NCBI GenBank assembly: GCA_045656905.1
Contig: JAZOSA010000039.1
Span: forward strand, 417 to 64,416
DNA length: 64,000 bases
Direction of reading: 5' to 3'
Origin: Bacteroidales bacterium
GTDB lineage: Bacteria; Bacteroidota; Bacteroidia; Bacteroidales; F082
Shown here: positions 4,551 through 63,785 of the stretch, piece by piece
How positions within the stretch are numbered: the first letter of the stretch is position 1
How the letters are laid out: each line of letters opens with the position of its first letter
Notes under the pieces: model-generated
The model's input: only the letters and a program-made list of their open reading frames with translations
What the model was told of the DNA's origin: nothing
Databases searched by the model: none
Position numbers and translations under genes: made by a program

Positions 4551-4633
4551 AAACGGAAAATTGAAAATTGAAAAATGGATACAAAGACAGTTGTCTGTTG
4601 ACAGTTGTCCGTTGACTTTAAAAATATAAAACG

Positions 4634-5998
4634 ATGAAAAAGATAATATATATCACAATATGCGCTTTCGTGTTGAGCAGCTGTAACATTTACAGGCAAT
4701 ACGAGCGTCCGGAGGTAGCTGCCCCAGATTCATATCGCCTGCCAGAAGATATGACGTCTGCCGACACTACTTCGATAGCAGATCTCAGCTGGACTGATAT
4801 TTACGCAGATACAAACCTACGCACATTAATTAATTACGGTCTTGAAAATAACACCGACCTTTTGGTGGCGATGGAGAGAGTGAAAGAAGCGCAGGCTGCT
4901 CTTAAGTCGGCAAAGTTGTCGTTCCTTCCTTCAGTCTCTCTCAATCCACAAGGCGGTTTGTCGTATGCCGGCGGCGCCACATCATGGAGTTATGATGCAT
5001 CGGTATCAGCAAGTTGGGAGATAGATTTGTTCGGCAAATTATTAAACAACAAGAGAAAAGCGCAAGTCGTTCTTTTACAGAATGAAGAATACAAGCAAGC
5101 AGTGAGAACGCAGCTCATTGCTACGATAGCTGATTTTTATTTCAACCTTCTGGCGTTAGATAAACAGTTGAACATCTATACTATGACAGAGCAGAACTGG
5201 GCTGTAAGCGTCGAGACCATCAAGGCGATGAAAGAAGGCGGCATGACTAACGAAGCTGCTGTAGTTCAATACGAGGCGTATCACGCATCTATCGCTGCTG
5301 CGATTCCTGATATCAAAGCTGCGATTATGAAACAGGAAAACGCTTTGTCTGCATTGCTCGGCGATTATCCTGATGTCATCGCTAGAGGCAAACTTGATGA
5401 GCAGAAAGTCGAGTTCGACATTCAGGCAGGCGTGCCGTTGCAACTCTTGGCAAATCGTCCTGACGTGAAAAGCGCAGAATATAAATTAGCTTCGATGTAT
5501 TATAACACCAATGAGGCACGTGCTGCGTTTTATCCAAATATCGTCATCGGCGGAAGTGCGGGATGGAGCAACCTCATAGGCGGAAAGATCGTCAATCCAG
5601 GTCAGTTCCTTGCGAGTGCGCTCGCTTCGTTGACACAACCTATCTTCTATAGAGGCGCGAACAAGGCGCGACTAGAAATAGCCAAGGCGCAGGAAGAAGA
5701 AGCGAAGCTGCAGTTCAGACAAAGCTTGTTAAACGCAAGTATGGAAGTCAGCAACGCTTTGATAACATACGACGCTGAAGTGAAAAAAGAAGTGGAACGC
5801 GACAGACAAATAGAAGCGTTATATAAAGCAGTTGAATATACAAATGAGTTGTTGAAACTCGGCACATCGACATATCTTGAAGTGTTGGACGCACAGCAGT
5901 CGCTGCTCAATGCTTTGCTGTCGAAGACCGACGATCAGTTGAATAAACTCAATGCAGTGACGTCGTTATATCACGCCCTCGGTGGTGGAAGGGAATAA
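4634..5998 (+). CDS. Outer membrane efflux lipoprotein (TolC/NodT family), operon 1
   Basis: 454 aa; lipobox VLSSC; paired OEP repeats; C-terminal LYHALGGG motif typical of NodT-family factors. Confidence 0.9.
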   Translation: MKKIIYITICAFVLSSCNIYRQYERPEVAAPDSYRLPEDMTSADTTSIADLSWTDIYADTNLRTLINYGLENNTDLLVAMERVKEAQAALKSAKLSFLPSVSLNPQGGLSYAGGATSWSYDASVSASWEIDLFGKLLNNKRKAQVVLLQNEEYKQAVRTQLIATIADFYFNLLALDKQLNIYTMTEQNWAVSVETIKAMKEGGMTNEAAVVQYEAYHASIAAAIPDIKAAIMKQENALSALLGDYPDVIARGKLDEQKVEFDIQAGVPLQLLANRPDVKSAEYKLASMYYNTNEARAAFYPNIVIGGSAGWSNLIGGKIVNPGQFLASALASLTQPIFYRGANKARLEIAKAQEEEAKLQFRQSLLNASMEVSNALITYDAEVKKEVERDRQIEALYKAVEYTNELLKLGTSTYLEVLDAQQSLLNALLSKTDDQLNKLNAVTSLYHALGGGRE

Positions 5999-6030
5999 AA
6001 AAAAAGAGCCGTGAGGCTCTTTTTTTTTGA
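5997..6030 (+). terminator. Rho-independent (bidirectional-type) terminator
   Basis: A-run, stem AGAGCC/GGCTCT, then a 10-nt T-run immediately after the stop at 5998. Confidence 0.7.
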
Positions 6031-6164
6031 ACTAAGAACTAAGAGCTAAGAGCTAAGAACCGAGAACTTTTTTGAGTTGTTTATGGGTCATTGATTTACA
6101 GGCATTCAGCACTACGTGCTCCATACCTGCCTATAATCTTTCGTCACTACGTGACTTTTTTTAT

Positions 6165-6190
6165 GAGACGCCACAGGGTGACGTCTCTAC
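6165..6190 (-). repeat. TGTAGAGACG-family hairpin repeat (inverted copy)
   Basis: GAGACGCCACAGGGTGACGTCTCTAC is the reverse complement of the element at 57404-57432 and 31198-31226, apart from 1-2 differences. Confidence 0.75.
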
Positions 6191-6232
6191 GGGTGATTGC
6201 TGTAAAAAAAAACGACTCTTTTTTTACACGTT

Positions 6233-6395
6233 GCGTTAGGGATTGGAGCGGCATCCTTTGCGAGCGTTTCGGGAACGAGTTTCGGGGACGGGGACGAGGT
6301 CACTGAGCTTGTCGAAGTGCCGAAATTTTGTGTGCGAGACGGAAATTAAGCGAGCAAAGATATAGCGGAAAGCCCGACGCGAAGCGGAACGCCCA
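6233..6395 (-). repeat. GC-rich ~165-bp interspersed repeat, copy A
   Basis: The reverse complement aligns end to end (about 90% by eye) with 31483-31650: TGGGCGTTCCGCTTCGCGTCGGGCTTTCCGCTATATCTTTGCTCGC...CGCAAAGGATGCCGCTCCAATCCCTAACGC. Confidence 0.85.
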
Positions 6396-6500
6396 GAAAA
6401 GGACTAAAGACAAAAGACTAATGACTAAAGTCTTTAATGCGTAATTATAAGTTTTTACTTTAGAGTTTATAGAATTTCTAATTTTTTTTTCATTTCCCTC

Positions 6501-6530
6501 TTGACAAATAAAAAATAATCTCTATCTTTG
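6501..6530 (+). promoter_or_regulatory. Promoter of the ABC/GntR operon (-33 TTGACA 6501-6506, -7 TATCTTTG 6523-6530)
   Basis: Matches the Bacteroidetes sigma-ABfr type consensus TTTG/TAnnTTTG with 16-nt spacing. About 185-nt leader to the ATG at 6717. Confidence 0.5.
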
Positions 6531-6531
6531 T

Positions 6532-6555
6532 AGTGTACTAGTTAACTAATACAGT
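6532..6555 (+). promoter_or_regulatory. Candidate operator (imperfect inverted repeat AGTGTACTAG-TTAA-CTAATACAGT)
   Basis: Lies directly downstream of the -7 box of an operon that encodes a YtrA-like GntR regulator. GntR operators are typically GT..AC palindromes. This is inference only. Confidence 0.3.
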
Positions 6556-6716
6556 GGATAATTTATAGTTCATAGTGTATAGTTCATAGTAGTTTTGGAG
6601 TGGAAAGTTATAAGTAGATAGTTTATCTAGCCCAATACATTTTCAACTCTCCACAACTTAACTTACAACTACTCTACACTCTAAACCATTAACTATTAAC
6701 TTTAAACTTTAACCCC

Positions 6717-7628
6717 ATGATAACAATAAACAACCTAGACTTCAGCTACAAGAATGTGGCGGTTTTCAAAAATATCAGCCTCGAATTTAAAGAAGGCAAC
6801 GTCTATGGTCTTCTCGGCGAAAACGGCGTGGGAAAGACAACGCTCCTGAAAATCATCAGCGGACTTCAATTCCCAAATGAAGGAACTTGTAAGGTAGATG
6901 ATTTCATTCCTTCAGATAGAAATCCTTATTTCTTGCAGAATATATTTTACCTTCCGGAAGAAGTCATAACAGAAGATACTACACCTGAGAAATTCATCAA
7001 TAAATTAGGTGTGTTTTATCCACGTTACGACCATTCTTATTTCTTAAATCTGATGAAAGAATTGGAGGTAGATGCCAATAAGAAATTCAATGCGATGTCG
7101 TACGGACAGAAGAAGAAATCGTTGTTAGCATGTGCGTTGTCGCTTCGTACTGATTATCTGCTTCTTGATGAGCCGACAAACGGACTTGATATTCCATCGA
7201 AGGCTTTGTTTAGAAAAGTGATATTGCAACATGGAAGCTCCACGGATCACACGGATTTGCACGTATCTGATTATGGTCAAAATAATACGAGCGATACTCG
7301 AGATACGTGGAGCTACAATCCTACAATAATCATTTCCACACATCAGGTGAAGGACGTGGAAAATCTCATCGACCCGATAGTGATTTTAGAACATGATGAA
7401 GTGCTTCTTAATTCAACATTTGAAGAGATTTCTCAACGACTTTATTTTGAATATGGTGCAGAGAAATCAGATGAGGCTCTCTATTCTGAAATGATGCCCG
7501 GCGGTTACATCAACGTGCTTCCAAATACTTTTAACATGGAAAGCAAAGTCAATGTTGAGGCACTGTTTAATGCTGTGAGATGTAATAAGAAGAAGATTAG
7601 AGAAATCTTTGTAAAAGTTGAAAATTGA
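6717..7628 (+). CDS. ABC transporter ATP-binding protein (YtrB-like) carrying a 25-aa in-frame repeat-derived insertion
   Basis: Walker A GENGVGKTT, signature MSYGQKKK, Walker B LLLDEPTNGLD, H-loop IIISTHQ. The Walker B-to-H-loop spacing is 57 aa instead of the usual ~32. Confidence 0.9.
   Translation: MITINNLDFSYKNVAVFKNISLEFKEGNVYGLLGENGVGKTTLLKIISGLQFPNEGTCKVDDFIPSDRNPYFLQNIFYLPEEVITEDTTPEKFINKLGVFYPRYDHSYFLNLMKELEVDANKKFNAMSYGQKKKSLLACALSLRTDYLLLDEPTNGLDIPSKALFRKVILQHGSSTDHTDLHVSDYGQNNTSDTRDTWSYNPTIIISTHQVKDVENLIDPIVILEHDEVLLNSTFEEISQRLYFEYGAEKSDEALYSEMMPGGYINVLPNTFNMESKVNVEALFNAVRCNKKKIREIFVKVEN
7238..7312. mobile_element. MITE/REP-like palindromic element (CTCCACG...CGTGGAG family) inserted in frame in the ABC ATPase gene
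   Basis: 75 bp with the same termini, length and internal blocks (GTATC.CGAGTATC, ATACGTGCA) as the four copies at 38708-39443. In this copy the terminal inverted repeat extends to AGCTCCACG/CGTGGAGCT (7236-7314). Confidence 0.8.
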
Positions 7629-7725
7629 AATTTGAAATTTGAAAATTAGCGGTCAGCTATCAGCAAGTATACCCAAAGTCTGTTGACTGTTGTCCGTTGT
7701 CCGTTGACCTTAAAAAATAAACATT

Positions 7726-8544
7726 ATGAACAATACATTTGATATAAAAAGATTCGGTAATGTCGTGAGACACGACGGAATGAGTTATTTCAAGAATTTT
7801 GGATGGACCTTGGTGGTATTGTGGTCGATACCTGTCATTTTCTGGATAATGACATACGTTTCTGATGGAGTATATACTAATCGCGATATATTGATTTCAC
7901 TGCTGATGTGGCTGTCGTTGATTATCGTTCCATCAAGACTTTATAAAGATGTAAACGATTCAAGAAAAGGAATGTTATATGCGATGACGCCTGCGTCTTC
8001 TTTGGAGAAATTCCTCAGTATGTTTCTCTATTGTGTGCTTGTTACACCTATTGTATATATGCTTGGCGCAATAGCTATTGATACTATTCTTTCATTAAAA
8101 CCAGGAACGAATCCTTACGATGGTTTCATCTTTAAAGATTTTAAGGGACTGTTATTACCTGACTTGGTTCATGTTGGTGATGATGAAATGAATAGACAGT
8201 TTGCTGAACATATATTAGACAAAAATCGAATTTTAATAAATATAATTCAGTTTCTATGTGTCTCTTCCATATTTATGTTTACGAATATGATTTTCAAAAA
8301 ACGTAAGCTCAGCAAGACAATAGGAATATTGACACTTATTGGAATAATACTTACAATTTTAATTGTTAGAATAGCTTCAGATATTGATGTTGAATTTTTG
8401 GATGATTATACAGACGATGAGATTTCAGTTTTTGTGAATAATGTAGTTGATAATTTTTATTCTATCATGTTCTGTATATATGCAACATTGTCAGCAGTTT
8501 TACTTTACTTCACTTATTATAAAATCAAAAGACAAACTTATTGA
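7726..8544 (+). CDS. Multi-pass membrane protein (probable permease partner of the ABC ATPase)
   Basis: 272 aa with about 6 hydrophobic helices, lying between the ATPase and the GntR gene. No recognisable family motif. Confidence 0.6.
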   Translation: MNNTFDIKRFGNVVRHDGMSYFKNFGWTLVVLWSIPVIFWIMTYVSDGVYTNRDILISLLMWLSLIIVPSRLYKDVNDSRKGMLYAMTPASSLEKFLSMFLYCVLVTPIVYMLGAIAIDTILSLKPGTNPYDGFIFKDFKGLLLPDLVHVGDDEMNRQFAEHILDKNRILINIIQFLCVSSIFMFTNMIFKKRKLSKTIGILTLIGIILTILIVRIASDIDVEFLDDYTDDEISVFVNNVVDNFYSIMFCIYATLSAVLLYFTYYKIKRQTY

Positions 8545-8546
8545 TT

Positions 8547-8891
8547 ATGGAATTCAAGTCGCACCAGCCTATATATCTGCAAATATATTTTCACATTTGC
8601 GAGATGATTTTGAACGATAAGTTTAAGGTAGGCGAGAAGATAATGTCGGTGAGGGAGATGGCGATAGAAGTGGGAGTGAATCCTAACACTGTGATGCGTT
8701 CGTACGAATTGCTTCAGAATAAAAATATCATCATCAACCAAAGAGGCATCGGTTTCAACGTAAGTGAAAATGCCAAAGAAATAATTCTTGAAGAACAGAA
8801 GAAGCAATTCATTGAAGAGGAACTTCCAGAGATAATCAGAAAGATGAAGCTGTTTGGAATTTCGATTGAAGACATTTTGAAGAATTCATAA
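8547..8891 (+). CDS. GntR-family transcriptional regulator, YtrA-like short subfamily
   Basis: The wHTH segment KIMSVREMAIEVGVNPNTVMRSYELLQNKNIIINQRGIGFNV is typical of the family. I prefer the ATG at 8547 to the TTG at 8541. It overlaps the stop of the upstream gene. Confidence 0.85.
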   Translation: MEFKSHQPIYLQIYFHICEMILNDKFKVGEKIMSVREMAIEVGVNPNTVMRSYELLQNKNIIINQRGIGFNVSENAKEIILEEQKKQFIEEELPEIIRKMKLFGISIEDILKNS

Positions 8892-26121: not shown

Positions 26122-26232
26122 TTAGGAATGAAAAAGGACGCCACGTCATGACGTCCCTATAATGTTTAATCTTTCAGATATAATATTCTCTGCGTTACTC
26201 TGCGCCTCTGCGAGAGATTTTTAAATTTTCAA
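26122..26232 (+). repeat. Direct repeat, left copy (111 bp), flanking the GNAT TA cassette
   Basis: About 90% identical by eye to 27103-27210. Contains the GGACG...CGTCC hairpin and a CTCTGCG word repeat, and includes the stop codon of the GNAT gene. Confidence 0.9.
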
Positions 26233-26777
26233 TAAATATCGTTCAAATCAAAATAAAGTGAGCTTGTGATTTTATCTTCTTCTTGTTCTTTAAGATTTTT
26301 GAAATTATTATTTCTGTAAAAATCTATAGCATTGTTATATGCGTCAACAGTTAGAAACCTGCAACCGGTTTTGTTATTTTCAATAAAGAAATATTTTATG
26401 AAATCAAGCAACATAGAACCGATACCTTTACCTCGTAAATAATTGTCAATTCCTAATCTGCAGATTTTCACAGCAGGATAACTTTTTATACGTTTTTCAT
26501 TAACAAATCGAGTGCGTCTGAAACGATTGAATTCAGTCTTGTTGTTAAAGTCGGTTAGAGAAACGCGGTCGTTAGCAAGACTAAAATATCCGATGACATT
26601 CCCTGTTTCTTTGTCTTCAAATATGTAAGTTACTGCTAATAATGCTTTTCTATAATGATGTGCCTCGTTGATAATAAAGTCGTTCAAATCAGCATCGCCG
26701 CAATCGAACGACTTTATTGTTTCGTTGTCTTCTAATTTGCGAATTTCATAGCGCAAATTGTAGTCGTAAAAGATCAT
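26229..26777 (-). CDS. GNAT-family N-acetyltransferase, probable type II toxin (TacT/AtaT-like)
   Basis: 182 aa; N-terminal FDCGDADLNDFI motif; acetyl-CoA site RGKGIGSMLLDF; small upstream partner gene 5 nt away. Confidence 0.75.
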   Translation of the reverse strand: MIFYDYNLRYEIRKLEDNETIKSFDCGDADLNDFIINEAHHYRKALLAVTYIFEDKETGNVIGYFSLANDRVSLTDFNNKTEFNRFRRTRFVNEKRIKSYPAVKICRLGIDNYLRGKGIGSMLLDFIKYFFIENNKTGCRFLTVDAYNNAIDFYRNNNFKNLKEQEEDKITSSLYFDLNDIY

Positions 26778-27102: not shown

Positions 27103-27210
27103 TTAGGAATGAAAAAGGACGCCATGATGACGTCCCGCAATGTTTAATCTTTCAGATATTATATTCTCTGCGTAACTCTGCGTCTCTGCGAGAGATTCTT
27201 TAATTTTCAA
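27103..27210 (+). repeat. Direct repeat, right copy (108 bp), flanking the GNAT TA cassette
   Basis: See 26122-26232. This copy includes the stop codon of the DUF4301-like gene. Confidence 0.9.
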
Positions 27211-28778
27211 TTCTCCTGATGTTTGTCCCTCAATAAATCATTAACAGTCTTCACTGGATTGAAAGTGATGACAGGTACTTCAACGAAGATGTTGATCCAG
27301 TCGGCCATTGCGCCGTTCCATAATCCTGGCAACTCCAATGCCTTGAGTTCTTTGCCGTCTTTAGATTTCTGTGAGATGAATCCTGTGTTATGGTCTATGT
27401 AATCGTTCAAGTCGAATGGTTCGCCTCTGAAGTCGTATGTGGCGCATACCAAATCAACAGGGTTGAAGTGCGTCGCCGATTGGAAGACAGCTTCTTGTTT
27501 CTCGTTCTTATGATCGATTTGTGATGACTCAACGATTTGTAATGACACTTCATCGCTGCTGTTTCTTGTCCAGTAAGGACCGCCGCCAGGTTCGCCTTCG
27601 TTTTTCACCATGCCGCAGATTCTCATCGGACGGTTCATCTTGCTGTAGAGGAAGTCGATTTTCTCAATTTCGTTGTATGTCTTGTAGAAATTAGGGATGT
27701 CAATCATCAGTTTTTCCTTGGCGAACTTAGCGATTTCGTCTATTTCATCGTTTGCCAGACATCCTTCGTCTAATAAGTTAAGGTATTCAAATTGTTGTTG
27801 TTGCAGTCTGAAGAGATAGCCGCCGAGGACTTTTTTATAATCGTAAGTCGTTGTTTTCAATCGGTCTGGAACAACGTTGTCGATGTTCTTGATAAAGATG
27901 ACTTCTTTTTTAAGGTCGTTGAGGTTTTGTAACAATGCGCCGTGACCGCCAGGGCGGAAGAGGAGACTGCCGTCGTTGTTGCGGAATGGCTCGTTGTTCA
28001 TATCGACAGCGATAGTGTCGGTGGATGGTTTTTGTACTGAATATGAGATGTTGTAACGTATGCCGTATTCTCTCTCGTATGTCGGAATCAGTTCTTCGAC
28101 GGTTTTCTTGAAAATGTCGAGATGTTCCTGTGAGACAGTGAAATGCAACTGAGCTATTTCGCCGTCTTCTGTGTATATCGTGCTGTATTGTGTCGCTTCA
28201 ACAAGATGTTCTTCAAGTGCCAGTCGTGATGATTCTTTGTATCTGTGGAACTTCAACAACGCCTTTGGCAGTTTGCCATAAGCAAGACCTTCGTTTTCGA
28301 GGAGGAATTCTGCAACTTCGACGAGGCGATTTTCGCTCATGAGAGTCTCGATGTCTTTGCCGCATTCTGCGAGCTTGTCTTTTAAATCGTCATAAAAGGC
28401 GAAGTCTCTGATGCTTAGGAAGAAATTCTCGATGGAATCGAATTTGACATTTTCTTTTTTCAGGAAGTCTTCAGGAATTTCCTTGCCTTTGTATTCTTCA
28501 ACAAAAGAATAAATGGTTTTAAACATACGGCTTGCGGCGCCTGATGCTGGGATGAATTTCAAGATGTCGTAGTATTCTTTGTCTTCATCGAATTGCTTTA
28601 TAAGTTCTTGAATCTCAGTGTCGCTGAATTTTATTATGCCGTTGCCAATCGTTGCAGGCGCGACTAAATCGCTGTAAGGGAAGCCTGTCTTGAATTGGTT
28701 GATTTGTCTTTCGACTTGATCGGTTGAAATGTTTAATGTCTCGAGTTGTTGTTTATCCTTGTTTGTTAAAGCTGACAT
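27207..28778 (-). CDS. DUF4301-like protein (nucleotidyltransferase-like fold)
   Basis: 523 aa from the ATG at 28778 (MSALTNKDKQQLE...). The FIPASGAASRMFK motif is recalled from DUF4301. A -7 box at 28801-28808 excludes the longer ORF start at 28835. Confidence 0.6.
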   Translation of the reverse strand: MSALTNKDKQQLETLNISTDQVERQINQFKTGFPYSDLVAPATIGNGIIKFSDTEIQELIKQFDEDKEYYDILKFIPASGAASRMFKTIYSFVEEYKGKEIPEDFLKKENVKFDSIENFFLSIRDFAFYDDLKDKLAECGKDIETLMSENRLVEVAEFLLENEGLAYGKLPKALLKFHRYKESSRLALEEHLVEATQYSTIYTEDGEIAQLHFTVSQEHLDIFKKTVEELIPTYEREYGIRYNISYSVQKPSTDTIAVDMNNEPFRNNDGSLLFRPGGHGALLQNLNDLKKEVIFIKNIDNVVPDRLKTTTYDYKKVLGGYLFRLQQQQFEYLNLLDEGCLANDEIDEIAKFAKEKLMIDIPNFYKTYNEIEKIDFLYSKMNRPMRICGMVKNEGEPGGGPYWTRNSSDEVSLQIVESSQIDHKNEKQEAVFQSATHFNPVDLVCATYDFRGEPFDLNDYIDHNTGFISQKSKDGKELKALELPGLWNGAMADWINIFVEVPVITFNPVKTVNDLLRDKHQEN

Positions 28779-28922: not shown

Positions 28923-29038
28923 TGGGCGTTCCGGCAAAGCCGTCGGGCTTTCCGCTATATCTTTTTCCGCTACGCTCCAAAAGGATGCCGCTTCAATCCC
29001 TAACGCACTGGCGGCGATTAGACATCAGTGGTCGGTAG
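28923..29038 (+). repeat. GC-rich interspersed repeat, copy B (internally deleted)
   Basis: It keeps both ends of the 165-bp element (TGGGCGTTCC...GGGCTTTCCGCTATATCTTT and AAGGATGCCGCTTCAATCCCTAACGC). It also keeps the ACTGGCGGCGAT tail seen after copy C. Confidence 0.8.
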
Positions 29039-29698: not shown

Positions 29699-29796
29699 GT
29701 TTGGTGCCTGGGCCTGTCGAAGGCAATGCTGGCGTTTCGACAAGCTCAGCGACCGACAAGTTCAAAGTTCAATAGCCAATAGCCTTAGTTCAAAGT

Positions 29797-31373: not shown

Positions 31374-31482
31374 GGAAAAAAGTCAACAGACAACGGACAA
31401 CCGACAACAGACTTTTTTGAACTCTTAACTCTTAACTCTTAACTCTGACACAGACTCTACACTCTACACTTTACACTTTCTT

Positions 31483-31680
31483 TGGGCGTTCCGCTTCGCG
31501 TCGGGCTTTCCGCTATATCTTTGCTCGCCTCATTTCCATCTCGCATCCAAAATTAGACCTCGGCACTTCGACAAGCTCAGTGACCTCGTCATCGTCCCCG
31601 AAACTCGTTCCCGACTTGCTCGCAAAGGATGCCGCTCCAATCCCTAACGCATTGGCGGCGATGAGCACCGAGGTGCGAGC
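31483..31680 (+). repeat. GC-rich ~165-bp interspersed repeat, copy C (plus a ~30-bp tail shared with copy B)
   Basis: See copy A. About 58% GC inside very AT-rich intergenic DNA. Confidence 0.85.
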
Positions 31681-31791
31681 TATGAGCATAGATTGCCGAG
31701 TCTATTACAACACCTTTGCTAGAAACTTCCAACCTTTAAATTAGGAAAACCGCTAACTGCTGACCGCTGACTGCTAACTGCTAACTTTCAA

Positions 31792-37074: not shown

Positions 37075-38541
37075 TTACAAGGAACCTCCTAAGGCTGTAT
37101 ATAATCTTACCAAGGCGAGCAGTGCTGAATTCCAAGCGTTTACCAAGTAATTCTGGTCGGAGAGAACGGTACGTTGAGCATCGAGTACGTTGGTGAAAGT
37201 GCCGAGACCTCTTTTGTATAAGTCGATGGAGAGTTCTAAAGTCTTGTTACCTTGTTCCACGACTTGTTGTCCCATTTCGATGGTTTTTAAAGCATTAGCA
37301 TAATTGCTCATTTCTGTTTCCACTTCTTGAATGGCATTCAAAATCACATTGTTATAATTGTCGATACTTTCGTCAAGGGCGATTTCTGCCATCTGAACAG
37401 ATTTCCTGACTTCCATTCCAGAAAATAGATTCCACGAGATAGATGGTGTCAGTTGAAACATCATACTTTCATTATTGAAAAATTTCTCTAAATCGTGAGA
37501 GAGATAACCGAAACTGCCAGTTATCTTGAATTTTGGATAGAAGTCGGCTTTAGTAGCGCCGATGCTAGCAGCTTGAGCCTCGATATTTAACTCGGCTTGT
37601 CGTACGTCAGGACGATTTCTTATCACATCGGCAGGAATACCGACATTGACGATATGTCTGATACTTGGGAGTTCGCTAATATCATTGAAACTGTCTTTTA
37701 AATTAGAAGGATATGTCCCTAATAGAATAGCCAAGTTGTTGACACATTGTGTGATGTAAGCGTCTAATCTTGGAATCGTGGCTAAGGTGTTATAATAAAC
37801 AGACTTAGCCTGAGACACGTCTAGTTGTGTTCCGAGACCAGACTCGTAACGCGCGATGGTGATGTCAAGTATGTTTTTCTCTGAAGCGATGTTCTGATTT
37901 GCAACGATGAGCTGCTGCTGATAAGAACGCAGGTTGAAATACACAGTAGCGACTTGAGCGCATAGATTTAAAATCGCATCTTGATAGGAAGCTTCCGTCG
38001 CAAGATAGGATTTCTTGTTAGATCTGACAATGTTTCTGTTTTTGCCAAAGACATCGATTTCCCAACTCGCATTGAGACCAGCGTTTAGGTAGCCATTGGT
38101 GCGATATTGGTCGCTGCTTGTCTCTTCGTAATAATTCAAACTTGTTTCGCTCAAATCGTATTGAGCGTCAAGACTTAAACTTGGATAAAACGCAGATTTA
38201 GACTGCTGGTAAAGTAACCTTGATTTTTCTAATGTTGCTTCGATGGATTGCAGGTTGTAGTTGTTGCTTAAAGCGACAGCCATTAAAGAATCCAAGGTGG
38301 AGTCTTTGAATCTTGTCCACCAGTCGTAATCCGTGATGTCGTTGTTAAGATAGATGGTGTCGATCTGCCATTTCTCAGGGATGGAAATCTCCAAATCTAT
38401 TTCTTTTTGGGCAGAACTTCGTAGGGGAAAAAGAAATAATAAGACTAATGATAAAAGTCCAAAGACTAGAGATGTGGACGAAGATTGTTGACCGTTGTCT
38501 GTTGACTGTTGACTTTTCATAATTCTGTTTTTTCTCATCAA
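37075..38541 (-). CDS. Outer membrane efflux protein (TolC family), operon 3
   Basis: 488 aa; OEP repeats; C-terminal LYTALGG. The start is uncertain (ATG at 38541 or 38520), and residues KSQQSTDNGQQSS are encoded by a GTCAACA word repeat. Confidence 0.85.
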   Translation of the reverse strand: MMRKNRIMKSQQSTDNGQQSSSTSLVFGLLSLVLLFLFPLRSSAQKEIDLEISIPEKWQIDTIYLNNDITDYDWWTRFKDSTLDSLMAVALSNNYNLQSIEATLEKSRLLYQQSKSAFYPSLSLDAQYDLSETSLNYYEETSSDQYRTNGYLNAGLNASWEIDVFGKNRNIVRSNKKSYLATEASYQDAILNLCAQVATVYFNLRSYQQQLIVANQNIASEKNILDITIARYESGLGTQLDVSQAKSVYYNTLATIPRLDAYITQCVNNLAILLGTYPSNLKDSFNDISELPSIRHIVNVGIPADVIRNRPDVRQAELNIEAQAASIGATKADFYPKFKITGSFGYLSHDLEKFFNNESMMFQLTPSISWNLFSGMEVRKSVQMAEIALDESIDNYNNVILNAIQEVETEMSNYANALKTIEMGQQVVEQGNKTLELSIDLYKRGLGTFTNVLDAQRTVLSDQNYLVNAWNSALLALVRLYTALGGSL

Positions 38542-38665: not shown

Positions 38666-38696
38666 TTGACATTTAATGCTTATAATAGTATCTTTG
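38666..38696 (+). promoter_or_regulatory. Promoter of the GxxExxY gene (-33 TTGACA 38666-38671, -7 TATCTTTG 38689-38696)
   Basis: Consensus match with 17-nt spacing. It ends 11 nt before repeat copy 1. Confidence 0.5.
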
Positions 38697-38707
38697 TAAA
38701 GAAAAAC

Positions 38708-38784
38708 CTCCACGTATCACGAGTATCACACGAATGTTTTGAGGTTGTGAAAAAAATACGTGCAGATACGAGAGATTCGTGGAG
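38708..38784. repeat. CTCCACG...CGTGGAG palindromic repeat, copy 1 (77 bp)
   Basis: CTCCACGTATCACGAGTATCACACGAATG...GTGCAGATACGAGAGATTCGTGGAG. The arms are imperfect reverse complements. Confidence 0.95.
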
Positions 38785-38820
38785 AAAGGTGAAGAATACG
38801 TGGAATTAAAAACCAAAGAT

Positions 38821-39189
38821 ATGATTATTGATAAATTGATTTATGAAACCATTGGTGCCTCAATGGAAGTGTACAACACACTGGGACCAGGTTTGTTGGA
38901 AAGTGTTTATGAGAAAGCTCTGTTTCATGAACTTTCTTTAAGAGATTTATATGTGGAATCGCATATCCCTGTAGAAATAATATACAAAGAAGAGGTGATA
39001 AATTCAGAACTTCGTTTGGATCTTATTGTTGAAGATACATTGATTGTGGAGTTGAAATCGGTTGAGACACTGCAACCGGTTCATTTTAAGCAGTTAAGAA
39101 CATATATGAGATTGCTTGATAAACCTGTGGGTTTGTTGGTAAATTTCAATGTTAGTGATTTTAAAAATGGTTATCGAGTTCTTAGATGA
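38821..39189 (+). CDS. GxxExxY protein (PD-(D/E)XK nuclease-fold, PDDEXK_3-like)
   Basis: 122 aa from the ATG at 38821. It has GLLESVY (= GxxExxY) and the D...ELK motif (RLDLIVEDTLIVELK). The GTG start at 38779 in the ORF track lies inside repeat copy 1. Confidence 0.85.
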   Translation: MIIDKLIYETIGASMEVYNTLGPGLLESVYEKALFHELSLRDLYVESHIPVEIIYKEEVINSELRLDLIVEDTLIVELKSVETLQPVHFKQLRTYMRLLDKPVGLLVNFNVSDFKNGYRVLR

Positions 39190-39192
39190 TAT

Positions 39193-39270
39193 CTCCACGT
39201 ATCACGAGTATCACACGAATGTTTTGAGGTTGTGAAAAAAAATACGTGCAGATACGAGAGATTCGTGGAG
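39193..39270. repeat. CTCCACG...CGTGGAG palindromic repeat, copy 2 (78 bp)
   Basis: Starts 3 nt after the stop codon at 39187-39189 and is nearly identical to copy 1. Confidence 0.95.
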
Positions 39271-39281
39271 AAAAGAAAAAC

Positions 39282-39357
39282 CTCCACGTATCACGAGTAT
39301 CACACGAATGTTTTGAGGTTATGAAAAAATATGTGCAGATACGAGATGTCCGTGGAG
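39282..39357. repeat. CTCCACG...CGTGGAG palindromic repeat, copy 3 (76 bp)
   Basis: In tandem with copy 2, separated by the 11-nt linker AAAAGAAAAAC. Confidence 0.95.
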
Positions 39358-39368
39358 AAAAGAAAAAC

Positions 39369-39443
39369 CTCCACGGATCACGAGTATCACACGAATGATT
39401 TTATGTGGTGAAAAATCCGTGCAGATACGAGAGATTCGTGGAG
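39369..39443. repeat. CTCCACG...CGTGGAG palindromic repeat, copy 4 (75 bp)
   Basis: In tandem with copy 3 through the same 11-nt linker. It begins CTCCACGGATCAC, like the copy in the ABC gene. Confidence 0.95.
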
Positions 39444-41281: not shown

Positions 41282-44200
41282 ATGAAATTTTTTACAAAAC
41301 AATCAAGTAAAGCAGTGGCAAAGAAATTTGCATTTCTGTTTTTGACAATGTTGGCATTTGGTTTTACCGCCAACGCTCAGATTCCAACATTTAATGAAAT
41401 CTTAGAACGTTATTACAATCCTCAAAATCTCGTTGTTAAGGCAACAGCACAAACACCTCCTTACGGACAACAATTTAGCAACTATACCTTTGAAGAATGG
41501 GAAACAGTGAAGGATTCTAGTGAGGAACCTAAAAACTGGAACTCATTTATGACTGCTGATGGCGGTAATGGAGGATTTTTAGTTGGAGATTTGAAAAAGT
41601 ATTTGCAAGATCAACTTTCAAAGTCAACAGAAAAACGTCCTGGTACAGCAGGTTCCTATAGTGCTCGTGTTTTCTCTAAAAGTAGAAACCTTATAATTAC
41701 GACTATAGTTGCTAATGGTAATATGACCAATGGTCAAATTTATGCAGGTAGTACAACCGCAAATAATGATGCTAATTATAATTTTACAAAAAGATCAGAT
41801 GCTAATTTTAATACACAATTTACAACCATACCAGACTCATTGACAGTATGGGTCGCTTTTAAACCTAAAGATGCTAGCAAAGGTAATGCTAGGATTACTA
41901 CAACAATCCATGGTGATACAGATTTGAAACAGCTTGCTAAGAGTGGTGATTCACCAGCAAATATGGTTTGTGCAACTGCAAACGTAGAAATCGCAGCTAC
42001 TAGTACATCGGCTGTCGTTTGGAAAAGAATGTCAATTCCTTTTACAAAAGGTTCTAATAATGACCCAAGATACATCCTTACAACGTTTAATACAAATAAA
42101 ACTCCAGGCGGTGGTTCTAATGGCGATGAACTTTATGTTGATGACATCTGTCTTATCTATAATCCAACATTAAATATGGAGTTGTTGGCACAGACAGAAT
42201 TCGATGGTACAAATCTTAATATAGAAGTTCCTTTCACTTTGGATGGTTCAATGTCTGTTTACAATATTAACAAATCAGACAATGAAGTCATTGCTCAGCT
42301 TTCAGATGCTAGCGGCAGCTTCGCAAATCCTATTGAATTAGGTCGTGTTACAACAAACGTAAATGGTACAATAAACGGCGTTCTTCCTGCTGATTTGAAA
42401 AACGGCACATATAAAGTAAGAGTCGTTTCTACAAACTATCCAATGGTTTCAAACGAAAGAGATATCGTTATCAATTTCCCTTACGTTCCAGTTCCACAAG
42501 TTGAAATCGCTTTGGGTGATGTCTTGGCTAAATCAGCAAGCGCTACATTCACTCCAAATGTAGACTGTGCAAATTATTATTTCGTAATCGCTCCTGCAAC
42601 ACAAAGTGTCGACGCAGCATACGTAAAAGCTAACGGTCAAGCAAAATCTGGATCATTCACAGCAACATTCGAAAACTTAACATCTTACACAGAATATAAA
42701 GTCTACGCACTTCCTCTTACTTCAGACGGCGTTGAAGGCGAAATGGCATCAGCAACACTTAAGACTGTCGCTCTTGTTCCTCAAATCACAATCGCAAAAG
42801 GTAATGTCGCAACAAAATCAATTGAAGCAACATTCACTCCAAATGCCGACTGCGCTCAATATTACTACTTGATTGCTAATGCAACAGAAACAGTAGACGC
42901 AGCATACGTCAAGGCAAATGGTGAAAATCAAACTGCAACATTTACAAAGACATTTGAAAACTTAATCTCTAATACAGATTACGTAATCTACGCTCTTCCT
43001 GTTGATGTCGAAGGTAAAGAAGGAACATTGGCAACACTCGCTGTTAAAACACAAGCTTTCGCTCCTCAAGTTGAAATAACAAGAGATAACTTCACAGCTA
43101 AGACAATAACAGCAACATTCACTCCAAATGGCGACTGCGCTCAATATTACTTCTTGGTTGCTCTCGCTACAGAAACAGTTGACGCTGCTTATATCAAAGC
43201 AAACGGTGAAAATCAAACTGAAACATATACAACAACATTTGAAGGTTTGACATCAAATACTGCTTATGTAATCTACGCTCTTCCAGTTGACGTTGACGGT
43301 TTCAATGGTGAAATCAAGTCTGTCACAGTTACAACAAAAGCTCTCGCACCACAAATTGAAATCGCACAAGGTGAAGTCGCTACAAAATCAGTAGAAGCAA
43401 CATTCACTCCAAATGCCGACTGCGTTGAATATTACTTCTTGATTGCAAAAGCAACAGAAACAGTTGACGCAGCATACGTTAAAGAAAATGGTGAAGTTAA
43501 AACTGAAACTTTCGCAACAACATTTGAAGACTTGATCTCTAACACAGATTACGTGATCTACGCACTCCCAATCGACGTAGAAGGCACTGAAGGCGCATTG
43601 GCAACACTTGCTGTCAAAACTCAAGCTTTCGTTCCTCAAGTTGACATCGAAAGAGGTAACTTCTCAGCAAAATCAATCACTGCTACATTCACTCCAAACG
43701 CAGACTGCGTTGAATATTACTTCTTGATTTCTACAGAAACAGTAGATGCAGAATATATCAAGGCAAATGGTGAAAAACAAACTGAATTATATACAACAAC
43801 ATTTGAAGACTTGACATCAAACACAGCATATACAATCTATGCTCTTCCAGTTGACGCTGATGGATTCTATGGCGAAGTTAAGACTATCACTGTTACAACA
43901 AAAGCACTTGCTCCACAAGTTGAAATCACAAAAGGCGAAGTCTTGACATATTCAATTTCAGCATCATTCGCACCAAATGCAGATTGCGATCAATATTATT
44001 TCTTGATTGCTGATGCAACAGAAATAGTAGATGCAGAATACATCATGGCAAATGGTGAACTTAAATCAGAATCTTATGCTCATACATGGGAAAATCTGAT
44101 GTCAAATACAAACTATACAATCTATGCTCTCCCAATCGACATAGAAGGTAATGCAGGTGCAGTTAATACATTAGTTGTAAAGACAAAGGTAGAAGCAGGC

Positions 44201-45961
44201 GTTTCAGAAGTTGATATCGATGTTGAAAAATTAAATGAAACAACAGTTACAATCACTGCAACACCAAACGAAAACACTATTTTATATCACTACATCATTG
44301 TGACAAAAGCAGAAGCTGATGCAATGGGTGAAGATGCTTTGATGCAAAAACTCATTGAAAATGAAAATTACCTCGACAGCGTTGCAGACGTATATACAAT
44401 GACAGTTGAATCAAATGTTGCATATTACGTAGTTGCACAAGGTAAGAATAGAGACGGTGAATGGGGCGAAGTTACAAAATATGAATTCGTTGTAGCAGGT
44501 CCAGCAGCAGTCGCTATCGCAGTTGAAAAAGTTACAGAAACAACAGTTACAGTAACAGCAACACCAAATGAAAATACAGTATCATATGAATATATCGTTA
44601 TAGAAAAAGCAGAAGCTGACGCAATGGATGAAGATGCATTGTTGCAAAAACTTGCAGAAGCAAATGAATTCACAGGCGTTGACGTATATACATATACTGT
44701 TAAATCAAATGTTGAATACTACGTTATTGCACAAGCTAAGAACGCTGATGGAAGATTAAGCGAAATCACAAAAGTTGAGTTTGTTGTCGCTGGTCCTGCA
44801 ACAGTAACAGTCGAAGTTATGGAATTGTCAGAAACATCAATTTTTGTTATGACACCAAACGAAGATGCAGTTTCTTATAAGTATATCGTTATAACAAAGG
44901 CAGAAGCAGACGAAATGAGTGAAGATGCTTTGATGGCAAAACTCGATGAAAACGAAGAATACCTTGAAGGTGTTAAGATTAGAGAATTGGTGGTTGAGCC
45001 AAATGTAGCATACTATATCGTGGCAAGAGCTAAGAACGCTGATGATATGTGGGGTGCAGTTACAATAGTTGAATATATATTTGAAGAGGCTGGTCCTGCA
45101 GCAGTAGCAATCGAGGTTAAAGAAGTTTCAGAAACATCAGTTGAAGTTACAGCAACACCAAACGAAAATACAGTTTCTTATAAGTATATCGTGATAACAA
45201 AAGCAGAAGCTGACGCAATGGATGCAGAAACTTTGATGCAAAAACTTGAATCTGCAAACGAACTTGATGCAGTTGACGTATGGACATATACAGTTGAATC
45301 AAATGTAGAATACTATGTCATAGCACAAGGTAAGAACGCTGACGGCAACTTTGGCGAAATGACAAAGGTTGAATTCGTTGTCAGAGTCGCTGGTGAAGCT
45401 GCATTGACAGTAACTGTTGAAGAATTTACAGAAACATCAGTTTTGGTTATAACACCAAACGAAAATACTGTGGCTTATCGTTATATCATCATTGAAAAAG
45501 CAGTCGCTGATTCAATCGGTGAAGATGCTGTAATGCAAAGACTCAATGAAAACGAGGATTATCTTGAAGACGTTACAGTGGAAGAGTTGATGGTAGAACC
45601 AAATGTTGAATATTATGTTATTGCACAAGCTAAGAATGCTGATGACGTCTGGGGTGAAGTGGTAAAAGTTGAATTCATCGTTATAGATGAAAATACTGGC
45701 GAAGATGATGGCGATAGTATCTCTGAACTTGAAACTGTATTCGAAATATATCCAAACCCAGCAAGTGAATATGTAAGAATAAAATCAAACAGCGATATTG
45801 AAAGCTTGATGATCTTCTCAATCGACGGCAAACTTGTTTATTCAGAAGACGTAAATCAAGAAGAAACAATGATTGATGTAACAGCATTTGCAAAAGGTTC
45901 TTACATCGTAAGAATGCTTTCAAACGACGAGTTCGTTATCAGAAGAATCGTTGTTAAATGA
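41282..45961 (+). CDS. Large T9SS-secreted surface protein with two tandem-repeat domain arrays
   Basis: 1559 aa with a signal peptide and an N-terminal region resembling PCMD-type carbohydrate-associated domains (weak call). It has 6 x ~95-aa and 5 x ~100-aa repeats. The C-terminal T9SS sorting domain reads ...FEIYPNPASEYVRIKS...GSYIVRML...RIVVK. Confidence 0.85.
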   Translation: MKFFTKQSSKAVAKKFAFLFLTMLAFGFTANAQIPTFNEILERYYNPQNLVVKATAQTPPYGQQFSNYTFEEWETVKDSSEEPKNWNSFMTADGGNGGFLVGDLKKYLQDQLSKSTEKRPGTAGSYSARVFSKSRNLIITTIVANGNMTNGQIYAGSTTANNDANYNFTKRSDANFNTQFTTIPDSLTVWVAFKPKDASKGNARITTTIHGDTDLKQLAKSGDSPANMVCATANVEIAATSTSAVVWKRMSIPFTKGSNNDPRYILTTFNTNKTPGGGSNGDELYVDDICLIYNPTLNMELLAQTEFDGTNLNIEVPFTLDGSMSVYNINKSDNEVIAQLSDASGSFANPIELGRVTTNVNGTINGVLPADLKNGTYKVRVVSTNYPMVSNERDIVINFPYVPVPQVEIALGDVLAKSASATFTPNVDCANYYFVIAPATQSVDAAYVKANGQAKSGSFTATFENLTSYTEYKVYALPLTSDGVEGEMASATLKTVALVPQITIAKGNVATKSIEATFTPNADCAQYYYLIANATETVDAAYVKANGENQTATFTKTFENLISNTDYVIYALPVDVEGKEGTLATLAVKTQAFAPQVEITRDNFTAKTITATFTPNGDCAQYYFLVALATETVDAAYIKANGENQTETYTTTFEGLTSNTAYVIYALPVDVDGFNGEIKSVTVTTKALAPQIEIAQGEVATKSVEATFTPNADCVEYYFLIAKATETVDAAYVKENGEVKTETFATTFEDLISNTDYVIYALPIDVEGTEGALATLAVKTQAFVPQVDIERGNFSAKSITATFTPNADCVEYYFLISTETVDAEYIKANGEKQTELYTTTFEDLTSNTAYTIYALPVDADGFYGEVKTITVTTKALAPQVEITKGEVLTYSISASFAPNADCDQYYFLIADATEIVDAEYIMANGELKSESYAHTWENLMSNTNYTIYALPIDIEGNAGAVNTLVVKTKVEAGVSEVDIDVEKLNETTVTITATPNENTILYHYIIVTKAEADAMGEDALMQKLIENENYLDSVADVYTMTVESNVAYYVVAQGKNRDGEWGEVTKYEFVVAGPAAVAIAVEKVTETTVTVTATPNENTVSYEYIVIEKAEADAMDEDALLQKLAEANEFTGVDVYTYTVKSNVEYYVIAQAKNADGRLSEITKVEFVVAGPATVTVEVMELSETSIFVMTPNEDAVSYKYIVITKAEADEMSEDALMAKLDENEEYLEGVKIRELVVEPNVAYYIVARAKNADDMWGAVTIVEYIFEEAGPAAVAIEVKEVSETSVEVTATPNENTVSYKYIVITKAEADAMDAETLMQKLESANELDAVDVWTYTVESNVEYYVIAQGKNADGNFGEMTKVEFVVRVAGEAALTVTVEEFTETSVLVITPNENTVAYRYIIIEKAVADSIGEDAVMQRLNENEDYLEDVTVEELMVEPNVEYYVIAQAKNADDVWGEVVKVEFIVIDENTGEDDGDSISELETVFEIYPNPASEYVRIKSNSDIESLMIFSIDGKLVYSEDVNQEETMIDVTAFAKGSYIVRMLSNDEFVIRRIVVK
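42494..44194 (+). repeat. Tandem coding repeat family A: 6 units of 285 bp (one of 279 bp)
   Basis: Units start at 42494, 42779, 43064, 43349, 43634 and 43913, each PQ[VI]EI...ATFTPN.DC..YYF.I...VDA.Y.KANG...YALP.D..G. Confidence 0.95.
44195..45685 (+). repeat. Tandem coding repeat family B: 5 units of 294-300 bp
   Basis: Units start at 44195, 44495, 44789, 45089 and 45389, each AG.A.V...V.E..ETSV.VT.TPNEN.V.Y.YI.I.KAEAD.M.EDAL...NV.YYV.AQ.KNADG. Confidence 0.95.
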
Positions 45962-50617: not shown

Positions 50618-50778
50618 GGCTGTTGACTGTTGACTATTAACTATTAACTATTGACTGTTGACCGTTGACCGTTGGCTATTAACTTTAGTTTAAAAAATAT
50701 AGGGGGCGTCATTTGGCGTCCCTTTGTAATTAGTCAATTTCAGAATTATCAGAATAATATAATTGTTAAAATCTTTAA

Positions 50779-61611: not shown

Positions 61612-62742
61612 ATGAAAAAGTTATTATTGTTCTTATTATGTGCATTATTGTCATTTACCGCTTTTTCTCAAGAGAAAAAATTCCGTCCGGTTCAGATAAA
61701 TTTCGGTTTTCCATTGAGTACGATAAATGTTAAAAAAGCCAAAGAATATACGAATGCGTTTTCAATAAATTTGTTGGTGGGAATTTCTAAGAATGAGAGA
61801 AGTCTCGCATTGGCTGGAATCAGTAATGTCATAGCTAATAATGCGACTGGTTTGCAAATTGCTTCTGTTTCTAACCATATCGGAAATGCTGGATATGGAA
61901 TAGAAGTTGCTGGCGTGACAAACATAAACAAAGGCATTTATAATGGCATCCAAGTCGGCGGCGTTTATAACTATTCTGGTTCAGGAAATGGAATAGTGGT
62001 CGCAGGTGTGGCAAATATGAGTAAAGGTTCTTACAATGGTGTTCAAGTCAGTGGCGTTTATAACTATTCAGGTTCAGGAAATGGAATAGCAGTTACAGGT
62101 GTGGCAAATATGAGTAAAGGTGCTTATAATGGTTTGCAGCTCTCTGGTGTGACTAATATCGCAGGTGATGTGAAAGGTCTGCAATTTGCTGGAGTGATGA
62201 ATATCGCGAAGAAAGTCAAAGGCGTGCAGTTTGCTACAATACTTAATGTCGCAGAAGAAAGTGATTTTCCAATAGCTTTTATCAATATTATTAAGAATGG
62301 TAAAATGGGAGTCGCTCTTTCTTACGACAATATGAACAATACGATGTTGTCTTTCAGATCAGGAGGCAAATACACATACGGTATCTTGGGCGTTGGTTAT
62401 AACAATAAAGTCAATGACGGAAGCAATATTGTAGCGGAAGCAGGTTACGGTATTCATATTCCTATAACTAATTGGCTTGAAATAAACAACGAATTCAAAG
62501 CAACATCGTTAGGATTTTCTAATGATAAGGTATGTTACAATGCATCATATCTTCTCGCTCCATCGTTCACATTCTTGAATCATTTTAACGTCTTTGGCGG
62601 CGCAAATTTCAATTATTTATATTCCAATTATGTTAATTCCGATGACTTATTTCCAAACAAATGTCTTTGGGAAAAGGATAACAGCGATAACAAACAAAGA
62701 ATGTTTATAGGTTATCAGATTGGCTTGCAATATGTTTTTTAA
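61612..62742 (+). CDS. Secreted/surface repeat protein with G-x-Q-x-(A/S)-G-V-x-N repeats (LA_2272-like)
   Basis: 376 aa with a signal peptide. Many short repeats (GLQIASVSN, GIEVAGVTN, GIQVGGVYN, GLQFAGVMN) and a beta-rich C-terminus ending ...LQYVF. Confidence 0.6.
   Translation: MKKLLLFLLCALLSFTAFSQEKKFRPVQINFGFPLSTINVKKAKEYTNAFSINLLVGISKNERSLALAGISNVIANNATGLQIASVSNHIGNAGYGIEVAGVTNINKGIYNGIQVGGVYNYSGSGNGIVVAGVANMSKGSYNGVQVSGVYNYSGSGNGIAVTGVANMSKGAYNGLQLSGVTNIAGDVKGLQFAGVMNIAKKVKGVQFATILNVAEESDFPIAFINIIKNGKMGVALSYDNMNNTMLSFRSGGKYTYGILGVGYNNKVNDGSNIVAEAGYGIHIPITNWLEINNEFKATSLGFSNDKVCYNASYLLAPSFTFLNHFNVFGGANFNYLYSNYVNSDDLFPNKCLWEKDNSDNKQRMFIGYQIGLQYVF
61945..62130 (+). repeat. Near-perfect 93-bp tandem duplication inside the surface repeat gene
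   Basis: 61945-62037 and 62038-62130 encode G[IV]QV[GS]GVYNYSGSGNGI[VA]V[AT]GVANMSKG[SA]YN twice. Confidence 0.9.
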
Positions 62743-63715: not shown

Positions 63716-63785
63716 TATATGTGAATAAAATTTGGACAAAGACTGTTGACAGTAGTCTGTTGTCCGTTGACTTAAAAATAAAATC

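Follow-up and report, generated by a model that had tools for sequence, protein, structure and literature searches.

A palindromic repeat in the reading frame of a Bacteroidales ABC ATPase gene, at a loop that is hypervariable among close relatives

Palindromic repeats that lie in frame within conserved genes are known from Rickettsia, where they were described as the Rickettsia palindromic elements, or RPEs (Ogata et al. 2000 Science 290:347, reviewed in PMC10969869). These elements measure about 100–150 nt and are frequently intragenic (PMC10969869). The palindromes of the REP/BIME type are shorter (20–40 nt), are mobilised by RAYT transposases and bear the tetranucleotide GTAG or CGTC at one of their ends (PMC3733652), and intragenic precedents among the bacterial MITEs include the ERIC/RU elements of enterobacteria (PMC2759123) as well as Correia, BOX and other repeats (PMC10969869). 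The literature that we searched held no description of the repeat family reported below, here called family A, or of in-frame palindromic insertions in Bacteroidales.

Here, we investigated a 64,000-nt stretch of genomic DNA from an uncultured gut Bacteroidales bacterium (the window), in which one family A copy lies inside the gene of an ABC transporter ATPase. The locus resembles the RPEs in that the genome holds several copies of the palindrome (five in 64 kb), one of which sits in frame in a conserved, housekeeping-type gene, is missing in orthologs and leaves the open reading frame (ORF) and the catalytic motifs preserved. As in the RPEs, the added peptide is hydrophilic, and it may sit where the fold can accommodate it.

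The ATPase gene and its in-frame repeat

The host gene (6717..7628, + strand) is intact and encodes an ABC transporter ATP-binding protein of 303 aa, which belongs to the ABC ATPases with a PF00005 score of 84.7 bits (cut-off 25). Its Walker A (G34-T42), Q-loop, signature (S128-K134), Walker B (L148-E152), D-loop (N155-D158) and H-loop (H209) motifs follow one another in order and are invariant across the homolog alignments, and the ORF and the two genes downstream are uninterrupted. The first of these two genes (7726..8544, +) encodes a membrane protein of 272 aa that matches no family and is syntenic in the relatives L081-L087, and the second (8541..8891, +; PF00392) encodes the short GntR-type, YtrA/PmtR-like regulator of the operon. 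The best NCBIfam matches of the ATPase and the regulator were PmtA and PmtR, respectively, both sub-threshold, and no equivalog cut-off was reached. The operon is therefore best regarded as YtrA/PmtR-like by its architecture and gene context and not as an assigned equivalog, and the earlier description of the gene product as a YtrB-like ATPase holds for the gene context and lapses at the level of equivalog assignment. The exact ATPase protein of the window was absent from the contig index.

Within this gene, 75 nt at 7238..7312 read CTCCACGGATCAC...GATACGTGGAG and code for ATPase residues 174–198; the strand that best fits the intergenic copies is the minus strand. The first base of the copy is the third of codon 174; the copy comprises 24 whole and two split codons and is free of stops in the frame of the gene. 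The encoded peptide is SSTDHTDLHVSDYGQNNTSDTRDTW. The codon of the catalytic Walker B residue Glu152 lies at 7170..7172 (+) and that of the H-loop residue His209 at 7341..7343 (+), 57 residues further on compared to 32 in orthologs, and the loop has a length of 30 residues in the window.

The pattern CTCCACG-N50-75-CGTGGAG matches the window exactly five times (7238-7312, 38708-38784, 39193-39270, 39282-39357 and 39369-39443) and had no match in 100 shuffles of the window; the copies measure 75–78 nt. Global identity between the in-gene copy and the four intergenic copies is 0.69–0.74 in reverse and 0.69–0.72 in forward orientation, with 0.73 for copy 2 in reverse, compared to a null of 0.59 +/- 0.03 (maximum 0.67) for sequences whose interior was shuffled and whose termini were kept. 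A family profile (nhmmer) matches 7312..7238 with E=6e-15, the minus orientation being the better one, and also matches the in-gene copies of L086, L087 and L088, none of which were used in its building. The in-gene repeat is a member of family A. The original prediction had placed a stop-free 75-nt element with the family termini at these coordinates, with the same length as the repeats that flank the GxxExxY gene, about 70–75% identity to copy 2 in reverse and a first 13 nt (CTCCACGGATCAC) identical to copy 4 in forward orientation. It had also read the same peptide, a spacing of 57 against about 32 residues with 25 extra residues, and a gene with intact catalytic motifs that does not look like a pseudogene, and all of these statements were reproduced.

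For the in-gene copy, folding gives a long imperfect hairpin of -26.9 kcal/mol (z=-4.6), and the intergenic copies fold likewise, with three CACGnATC-like sub-repeats in each arm (CACGTATC). The codon ahead of the element reads AGC in the window and GTC in all other alleles; AGC adds two pairs (AG...CT; 7236-7237 and 7313-7314) to the terminal stem, which may be chance. The palindrome as extended in this way, AGCTCCACG...CGTGGAGCT, spans 7236-7314, and the AG/CT beside the in-gene copy is such an extension and not a duplication. The element had no Rfam match at the gathering score, the sub-threshold matches being chance ones to miRNA precursors, and it escaped a consensus terminator scan, whose definition of a terminator admits only shorter loops. 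Covariation over the five in-gene copies gave one compensatory pair out of 19, which speaks neither for nor against a selected RNA structure.

Outside the ATPase gene, family A is found in the window around the gene of a GxxExxY protein (38821..39189, +; PD-(D/E)XK, PDDEXK_3) that scores 133 bits with PF13366 and 135.6 bits with TIGR04256. Copy 1 (38708..38784, +) is intergenic and lies in the leader of this gene, just after a TAnnTTTG-type promoter box (region 38666-39443), and copies 2-4 (39193-39270, 39282-39357 and 39369-39443) follow in tandem at 39193..39443 (+), with AAAAGAAAAAC spacers between them. A pattern scan of metagenomes yielded 46 matches, about 11 of which are true relatives; the remaining ones were rejected as GC-rich chance palindromes. 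Related intergenic copies occur in the metagenome contigs L093, L098, L101, L103, L116, L123, L126/L133 and L127, and the true relatives are intergenic throughout, with the exception of L108, which carries the ATPase copy. This ATPase gene is the sole gene interrupted among the roughly ten independent family A loci recovered. No family A copy was found in two scans of viral contigs, and a search with the concatenated element-encoded peptides for other genes carrying the element in frame gave no match, which says little because only five candidates shared words with them. The flanks of the five window copies and nine metagenome copies have no target-site duplication, the hallmark sought for a MITE. 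About two to three of the six frames of a typical copy are open, and the lengths of 75 and 78 nt are both divisible by three, so that landing in frame without a stop is not rare.

In three unrelated loci, out of about nine intergenic ones, family A directly flanks a small “intervening-sequence-type” gene. Besides the window, these are L101 (689-1188), where a GxxExxY gene lies between a full and a half family A copy, and L116 (900-2115), where a 23S_rRNA_IVP gene is flanked by arrays of family A left arms. The position beside GxxExxY and 23S-IVS-protein genes is a possible lead on how family A is mobilised.

The ATPase operon occurs in two neighbourhoods, as seen from a comparison of the window (4634-6716) with L081, L083, L084, L087 and L088. 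An RND efflux OEP gene precedes it in the window and in L085, and thrS-infC-rpmI-rplT precedes it in most relatives; a repeat-filled spacer at 6000-6716 marks the breakpoint between the two. In L083, a 23S_rRNA_IVP gene (5623-5985) separates the thiamine genes from thrS, and L081 lacks it at the same spot, a presence-absence pattern that is consistent with mobility of these small genes. An element of about 180 nt just upstream of the ATPase gene (6232-6409) recurs inverted at 31469-31651 with 88–95% identity, and part of it resembles 28941-29007 (within 28937-29020), which Rfam identifies as a Flavo-1 RNA with 44.9 bits (gathering score 42). Intergenic runs of 7-nt units (GTTGACn, GTTGTCC and similar ones, also TGAAATT, CATAGAC and TTAACTA types) occur at 4586-4619, 7678-7711, 31755-31788, 38483-38516, 50618-50686 and 63741-63774; such runs are pervasive in the genome, where they are found a short distance ahead of many start codons or behind stop codons. 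The tandem repeats at 42485-45685, first with a 285-nt period (at least five copies) and then with 300/594-nt periods (66–82% identity), presumably belong to a large repetitive protein gene. Furthermore, three coding-like 93-nt repeats stand in tandem at 61891-62169 (63–77% identity), and a 73-nt direct repeat at 26161-26233 and 27139-27211 is 93% identical over a distance of 978 nt.

Ancestral turn, shared insert and variation of the loop

An ortholog scan with one genome per species yielded 80 loci with 42–86% identity, from Bacteroidales MAGs (ruminant, horse and human gut) as well as Dysgonomonas, Emticicia, Pedobacter and Saprospiraceae. At the point where the window carries its insert, a 5-residue turn links the helix that follows the D-loop to the strand with the H-loop His in 75 of the 80 genomic orthologs, with a Glu-to-His spacing of 32; L003, for instance, has the short turn VILQH-CTDET-TVIISTHQ. 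A profile search added 120 proteins, mostly from a sister clade and about 80–86% identical, every one of which (120/120) has the short 5-residue turn, and CTDET is found in 101 of the 106 sister-clade sequences with the QHC context. Excision of 7238-7312 from the window leaves CAT GGA AGC TAC AAT CCT ACA, which reads H-GSYNP-T and has the length of the ancestral H-CTDET-T. Because the excision restores the ancestral length codon for codon and orthologs have the short turn, the comparison marks the 25-residue excess as real and derived, as the original prediction had expected of an ortholog alignment.

In a PDB search with the single protein, alignments stop at residue ~166-174. A profile alignment to 1VPL (TM0544) spans the H-loop and puts the insert in the turn between ...KQASQEG and LTILVSSH.... 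An AF2 model from the close-homolog alignment was unusable (mean pLDDT 44), and the one from the best, shallow alignment reached a mean pLDDT of 59, enough only for the order of secondary structure. This better model has a strand at 147-150 (Walker B), a helix at 159-173 and a strand at 204-207 before His209; in this low-confidence model, residues 175-201 are coil with no secondary structure (pLDDT ~30). Foldseek matches of the model are ABC nucleotide-binding domains (NBDs), at TM scores of only 0.45–0.6. From the general topology of ABC NBDs, the turn is presumably solvent-exposed and far from the ATP sandwich interface. The insert is thus probably exposed at the surface, a placement that leans mainly on general knowledge of the ABC fold, the AF2 confidence being low.

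The insert is not confined to the window. P0001, which clusters 35 sequences, and L108, which stems from an unrelated metagenome, have the same allele with 96–98% identity, and the element is found in L108, L086, L087 and L088 at the same junction, 8 nt past the first base of the His172 codon, in the same orientation, stop-free and with length differences of whole codons only. The suspicion of an assembly chimera can be set aside, the same insert being present in at least five independent assemblies (P0001, L108 and L086-L088). As these assemblies share insert, site, orientation and frame, the insert is old and no chimera, nor an artefact or a pseudogene, and it has been kept open by selection on the gene. 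The flanks of L086-L088 are 86–90% identical at the protein level and 53–64% at third codon positions. The loop DNA of the window is 69–72% identical to that of L086/L087/L088, compared to 88–96% at first and second and 53–64% at third codon positions of the flanks, and the in-gene copies are 69–78% identical to one another. Judged by these identities, the insert changes faster than ordinary coding sequence and more slowly than synonymous sites, so that it does not appear to evolve as free junk; the slow change could stem from gene conversion, from constraint that acts on peptide or hairpin, or from more recent allele exchange and recombination.

Among the 120 closest cluster representatives, the loop occurs in 39 different sequences, and this hypervariability is seen only in this clade. 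The alleles comprise 5 with the full element, 31 partial, 80 B-type and 4 C-type ones. The original prediction had also proposed a search for an empty site among strains; the untouched ancestral loop was found in none of the same-species strains, which have many other derived alleles instead. Most partial alleles (28/31), including the commonest one, have GVSTDxTDLHGT-type loops with the left arm only. Two losses set the commonest half-element allele (L081) apart from the full element, 46 nt enclosed by the internal CACG...CGTG stem halves and 8 nt at a CTACAAT direct repeat, which makes 54 nt in total and in frame, and we infer that it arose by hairpin- and slippage-mediated decay.

The B-type loops (STDAINxVP) consist of one to three tandem units of 15–21 nt, e.g., (STDANEN)1-3, STDAS-TDAINR and TDAAG x3. 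Such in-frame duplications of 15–21 nt in the turn are seen in L085 (3001-3915), L002, L005 and L029 and vary between close relatives, and there are none in the sister clade. The idea that B-type alleles are scars of the element was rejected, as their AGT ACG GAC GCG derives stepwise from the ancestral TGC ACC GAT GAA. The C-type loops contain ...VVEPVETTRMPSTSSG... and are carried by L084 (3523-3573), P0009, P0065, P0112 and P0114. Their 51-nt insert reads GTGGTTGAGCCTGTCGAAACCACACGTATGCCTTCGACAAGCTCAGGCACC and is a hairpin in itself (-23.4 kcal/mol). It is a member of a second palindromic family (GGTGCCTGrGCyTGTCGAAGG...TTCGACArGCTCAG) that is unrelated to family A, and its junction lies within ~2 nt of the family A junction. 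In the window, this second family is represented by an intergenic copy at 29703..29754 (no strand assigned) and a half copy at 6296-6320, and another copy lies just downstream of the ATPase gene in L108. When the flanking protein is used to build a tree, A-, B- and C-type alleles intermingle from its deep to its shallow branches, a distribution that points to long-lived polymorphism, recombination between alleles, or both.

Origin of the insert and of the variation

We consider it highly probable that the locus goes back to an in-frame insertion of family A as selfish DNA, in the manner of an RPE, which then gave rise to an unstable, hypervariable loop. The act of insertion is read from the comparison of alleles and orthologs, according to which a family A copy of ~75 nt would have inserted into the ABC ATPase gene in an ancestor of this Bacteroidales clade. 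It would have landed in a short surface turn that leads from the helix after the D-loop to the beta-strand with the H-loop histidine, and would have lengthened this turn from 5 to 30 residues by a hydrophilic, probably disordered peptide, with an ATPase that probably stayed functional. With its 3 x 25 nt and a landing frame free of stops, the copy would merely have lengthened the turn, and purifying selection on the gene would have kept the insert open, as has been described for RPEs. The palindrome may then have destabilised the site, so that deletion of half-elements, allelic recombination and short tandem duplications produced a clade-specific hypervariable loop, and the second palindromic family would have entered the same turn independently.

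Points against the insertion account are the missing target-site duplication, the lack of the untouched ancestral loop in same-species strains, an insert that changes more slowly than the synonymous sites of its flanks, and the identity of only 69–74% to the intergenic copies of the same genome. This modest resemblance (~70–74%) might also be expected if the segment were not derived from the repeat at all and resembled it by chance or through a chimeric join, as an assembly artefact or a pseudogene remnant; we give this practically no credence, since termini, length, sub-repeat layout and hairpin all match those of family A, the profile match has E=6e-15, and the same insert recurs in at least five independent assemblies with ORF and motifs intact. 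It is also conceivable, if unlikely, that the local DNA is a preferred target and that the turn was hit repeatedly, by family A in different lineages as well as by family 2. The junctions of the two families lie ~2 nt apart, and A-type alleles sit on deep and on shallow branches, interleaved with B-type alleles, as such targeting would predict. However, all A-type copies share the junction, the orientation, the phase, the left arm and a central CAAAAyAAT ACG block, which fits one event followed by recombination and hence a probably single origin, and the flanks of the other family A copies do not resemble the ATPase site. Moreover, selection would confine viable insertions to the 15-nt turn, so that two hits within 2 nt are not improbable.

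Rather less probable still is an adaptive role, in which the variation itself would be selected, either as an escape from a phage- or toxin-encoded binder or as a means of transporter tuning, and the repeats would merely be its raw material. Selection of this kind would account for the 39 alleles among 120 close relatives next to an invariant sister clade (101/106 CTDET), for allele types scattered over the tree like a long-lived polymorphism, for an insert that changes more slowly than synonymous sites, and for the use of the same few codons by two repeat families and several independent tandem duplications. Yet the protein is cytoplasmic, the loop lies away from the catalytic motifs and has no known binding partner, the alleles are of low complexity and rich in S/T/D/N with no conserved motif beyond STD, and relaxed constraint together with palindrome-induced instability and recombination gives the same pattern without any benefit.

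Under the preferred reading of an in-frame insertion followed by hairpin-driven instability, the locus offers a natural series of alleles (ancestral 5-aa turn, full element, half element, tandem duplications and second element) that shows the fate of an insert over time. It also marks one turn of the NBD as highly tolerant to insertion, which is useful for the engineering of tags, and it is a warning for annotation, since repeats may be the source of low-complexity stretches in the conserved proteins of Bacteroidales MAGs.

Comparison with described repeat systems

Unlike the RPEs, family A resides in the Bacteroidota, in a free-living gut organism that has no reduced intracellular genome; its units of 75 nt have about half the RPE length, and in-gene copies seem exceptional. 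Membership in the RPE families 1-10 by sequence is very unlikely, as length, host and termini set family A apart. Like the REP/BIME repeats, family A consists of imperfect palindromes that are mostly extragenic and free of target-site duplications and that often follow a gene as a tandem array, whereas its units of 75–78 nt, with CTCCACG/CGTGGAG termini and three CACGnATC sub-repeats per arm, differ from the REP format in both size and ends, so that strictly speaking family A is no REP. MITEs consist of a non-palindromic core between terminal inverted repeats and come with target-site duplications and a parent IS. Family A shares with them the small size, the non-autonomous nature, the inverted ends and the occasional in-frame fusion with host ORFs, but its whole unit is a single hairpin without flanking duplication, and by the latter criterion it is no MITE.

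The copies and half copies of family A that flank genes of the intervening sequence (IVS) type (TIGR04256/PF13366; 23S_rRNA_IVP, PF05635) in the window, L101 and L116 recall the inverted repeats that bracket IVS ORFs. In contrast to such cassettes, the family A loci do not lie within rRNA genes, and the association holds for 3 of ~9 intergenic loci. It is an improbable extension of this likeness that family A would be the non-autonomous partner of the GxxExxY and 23S-IVS cassettes, a new nuclease-driven class of palindromes in Bacteroidales that remodels a selected, hypervariable turn of the ATPase; if this were true, free-living gut bacteria would routinely draw diversity in their protein loops from selfish palindromes.

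The kind of event described here is already known from Rickettsia, and what is new is a clade-specific hotspot of insertion and indels that has been used by two repeat families. Compared to that precedent, the locus adds two settings in which selfish DNA occurs inside protein genes, an abundant lineage of free-living gut bacteria and the catalytic core domain of an ABC ATPase.
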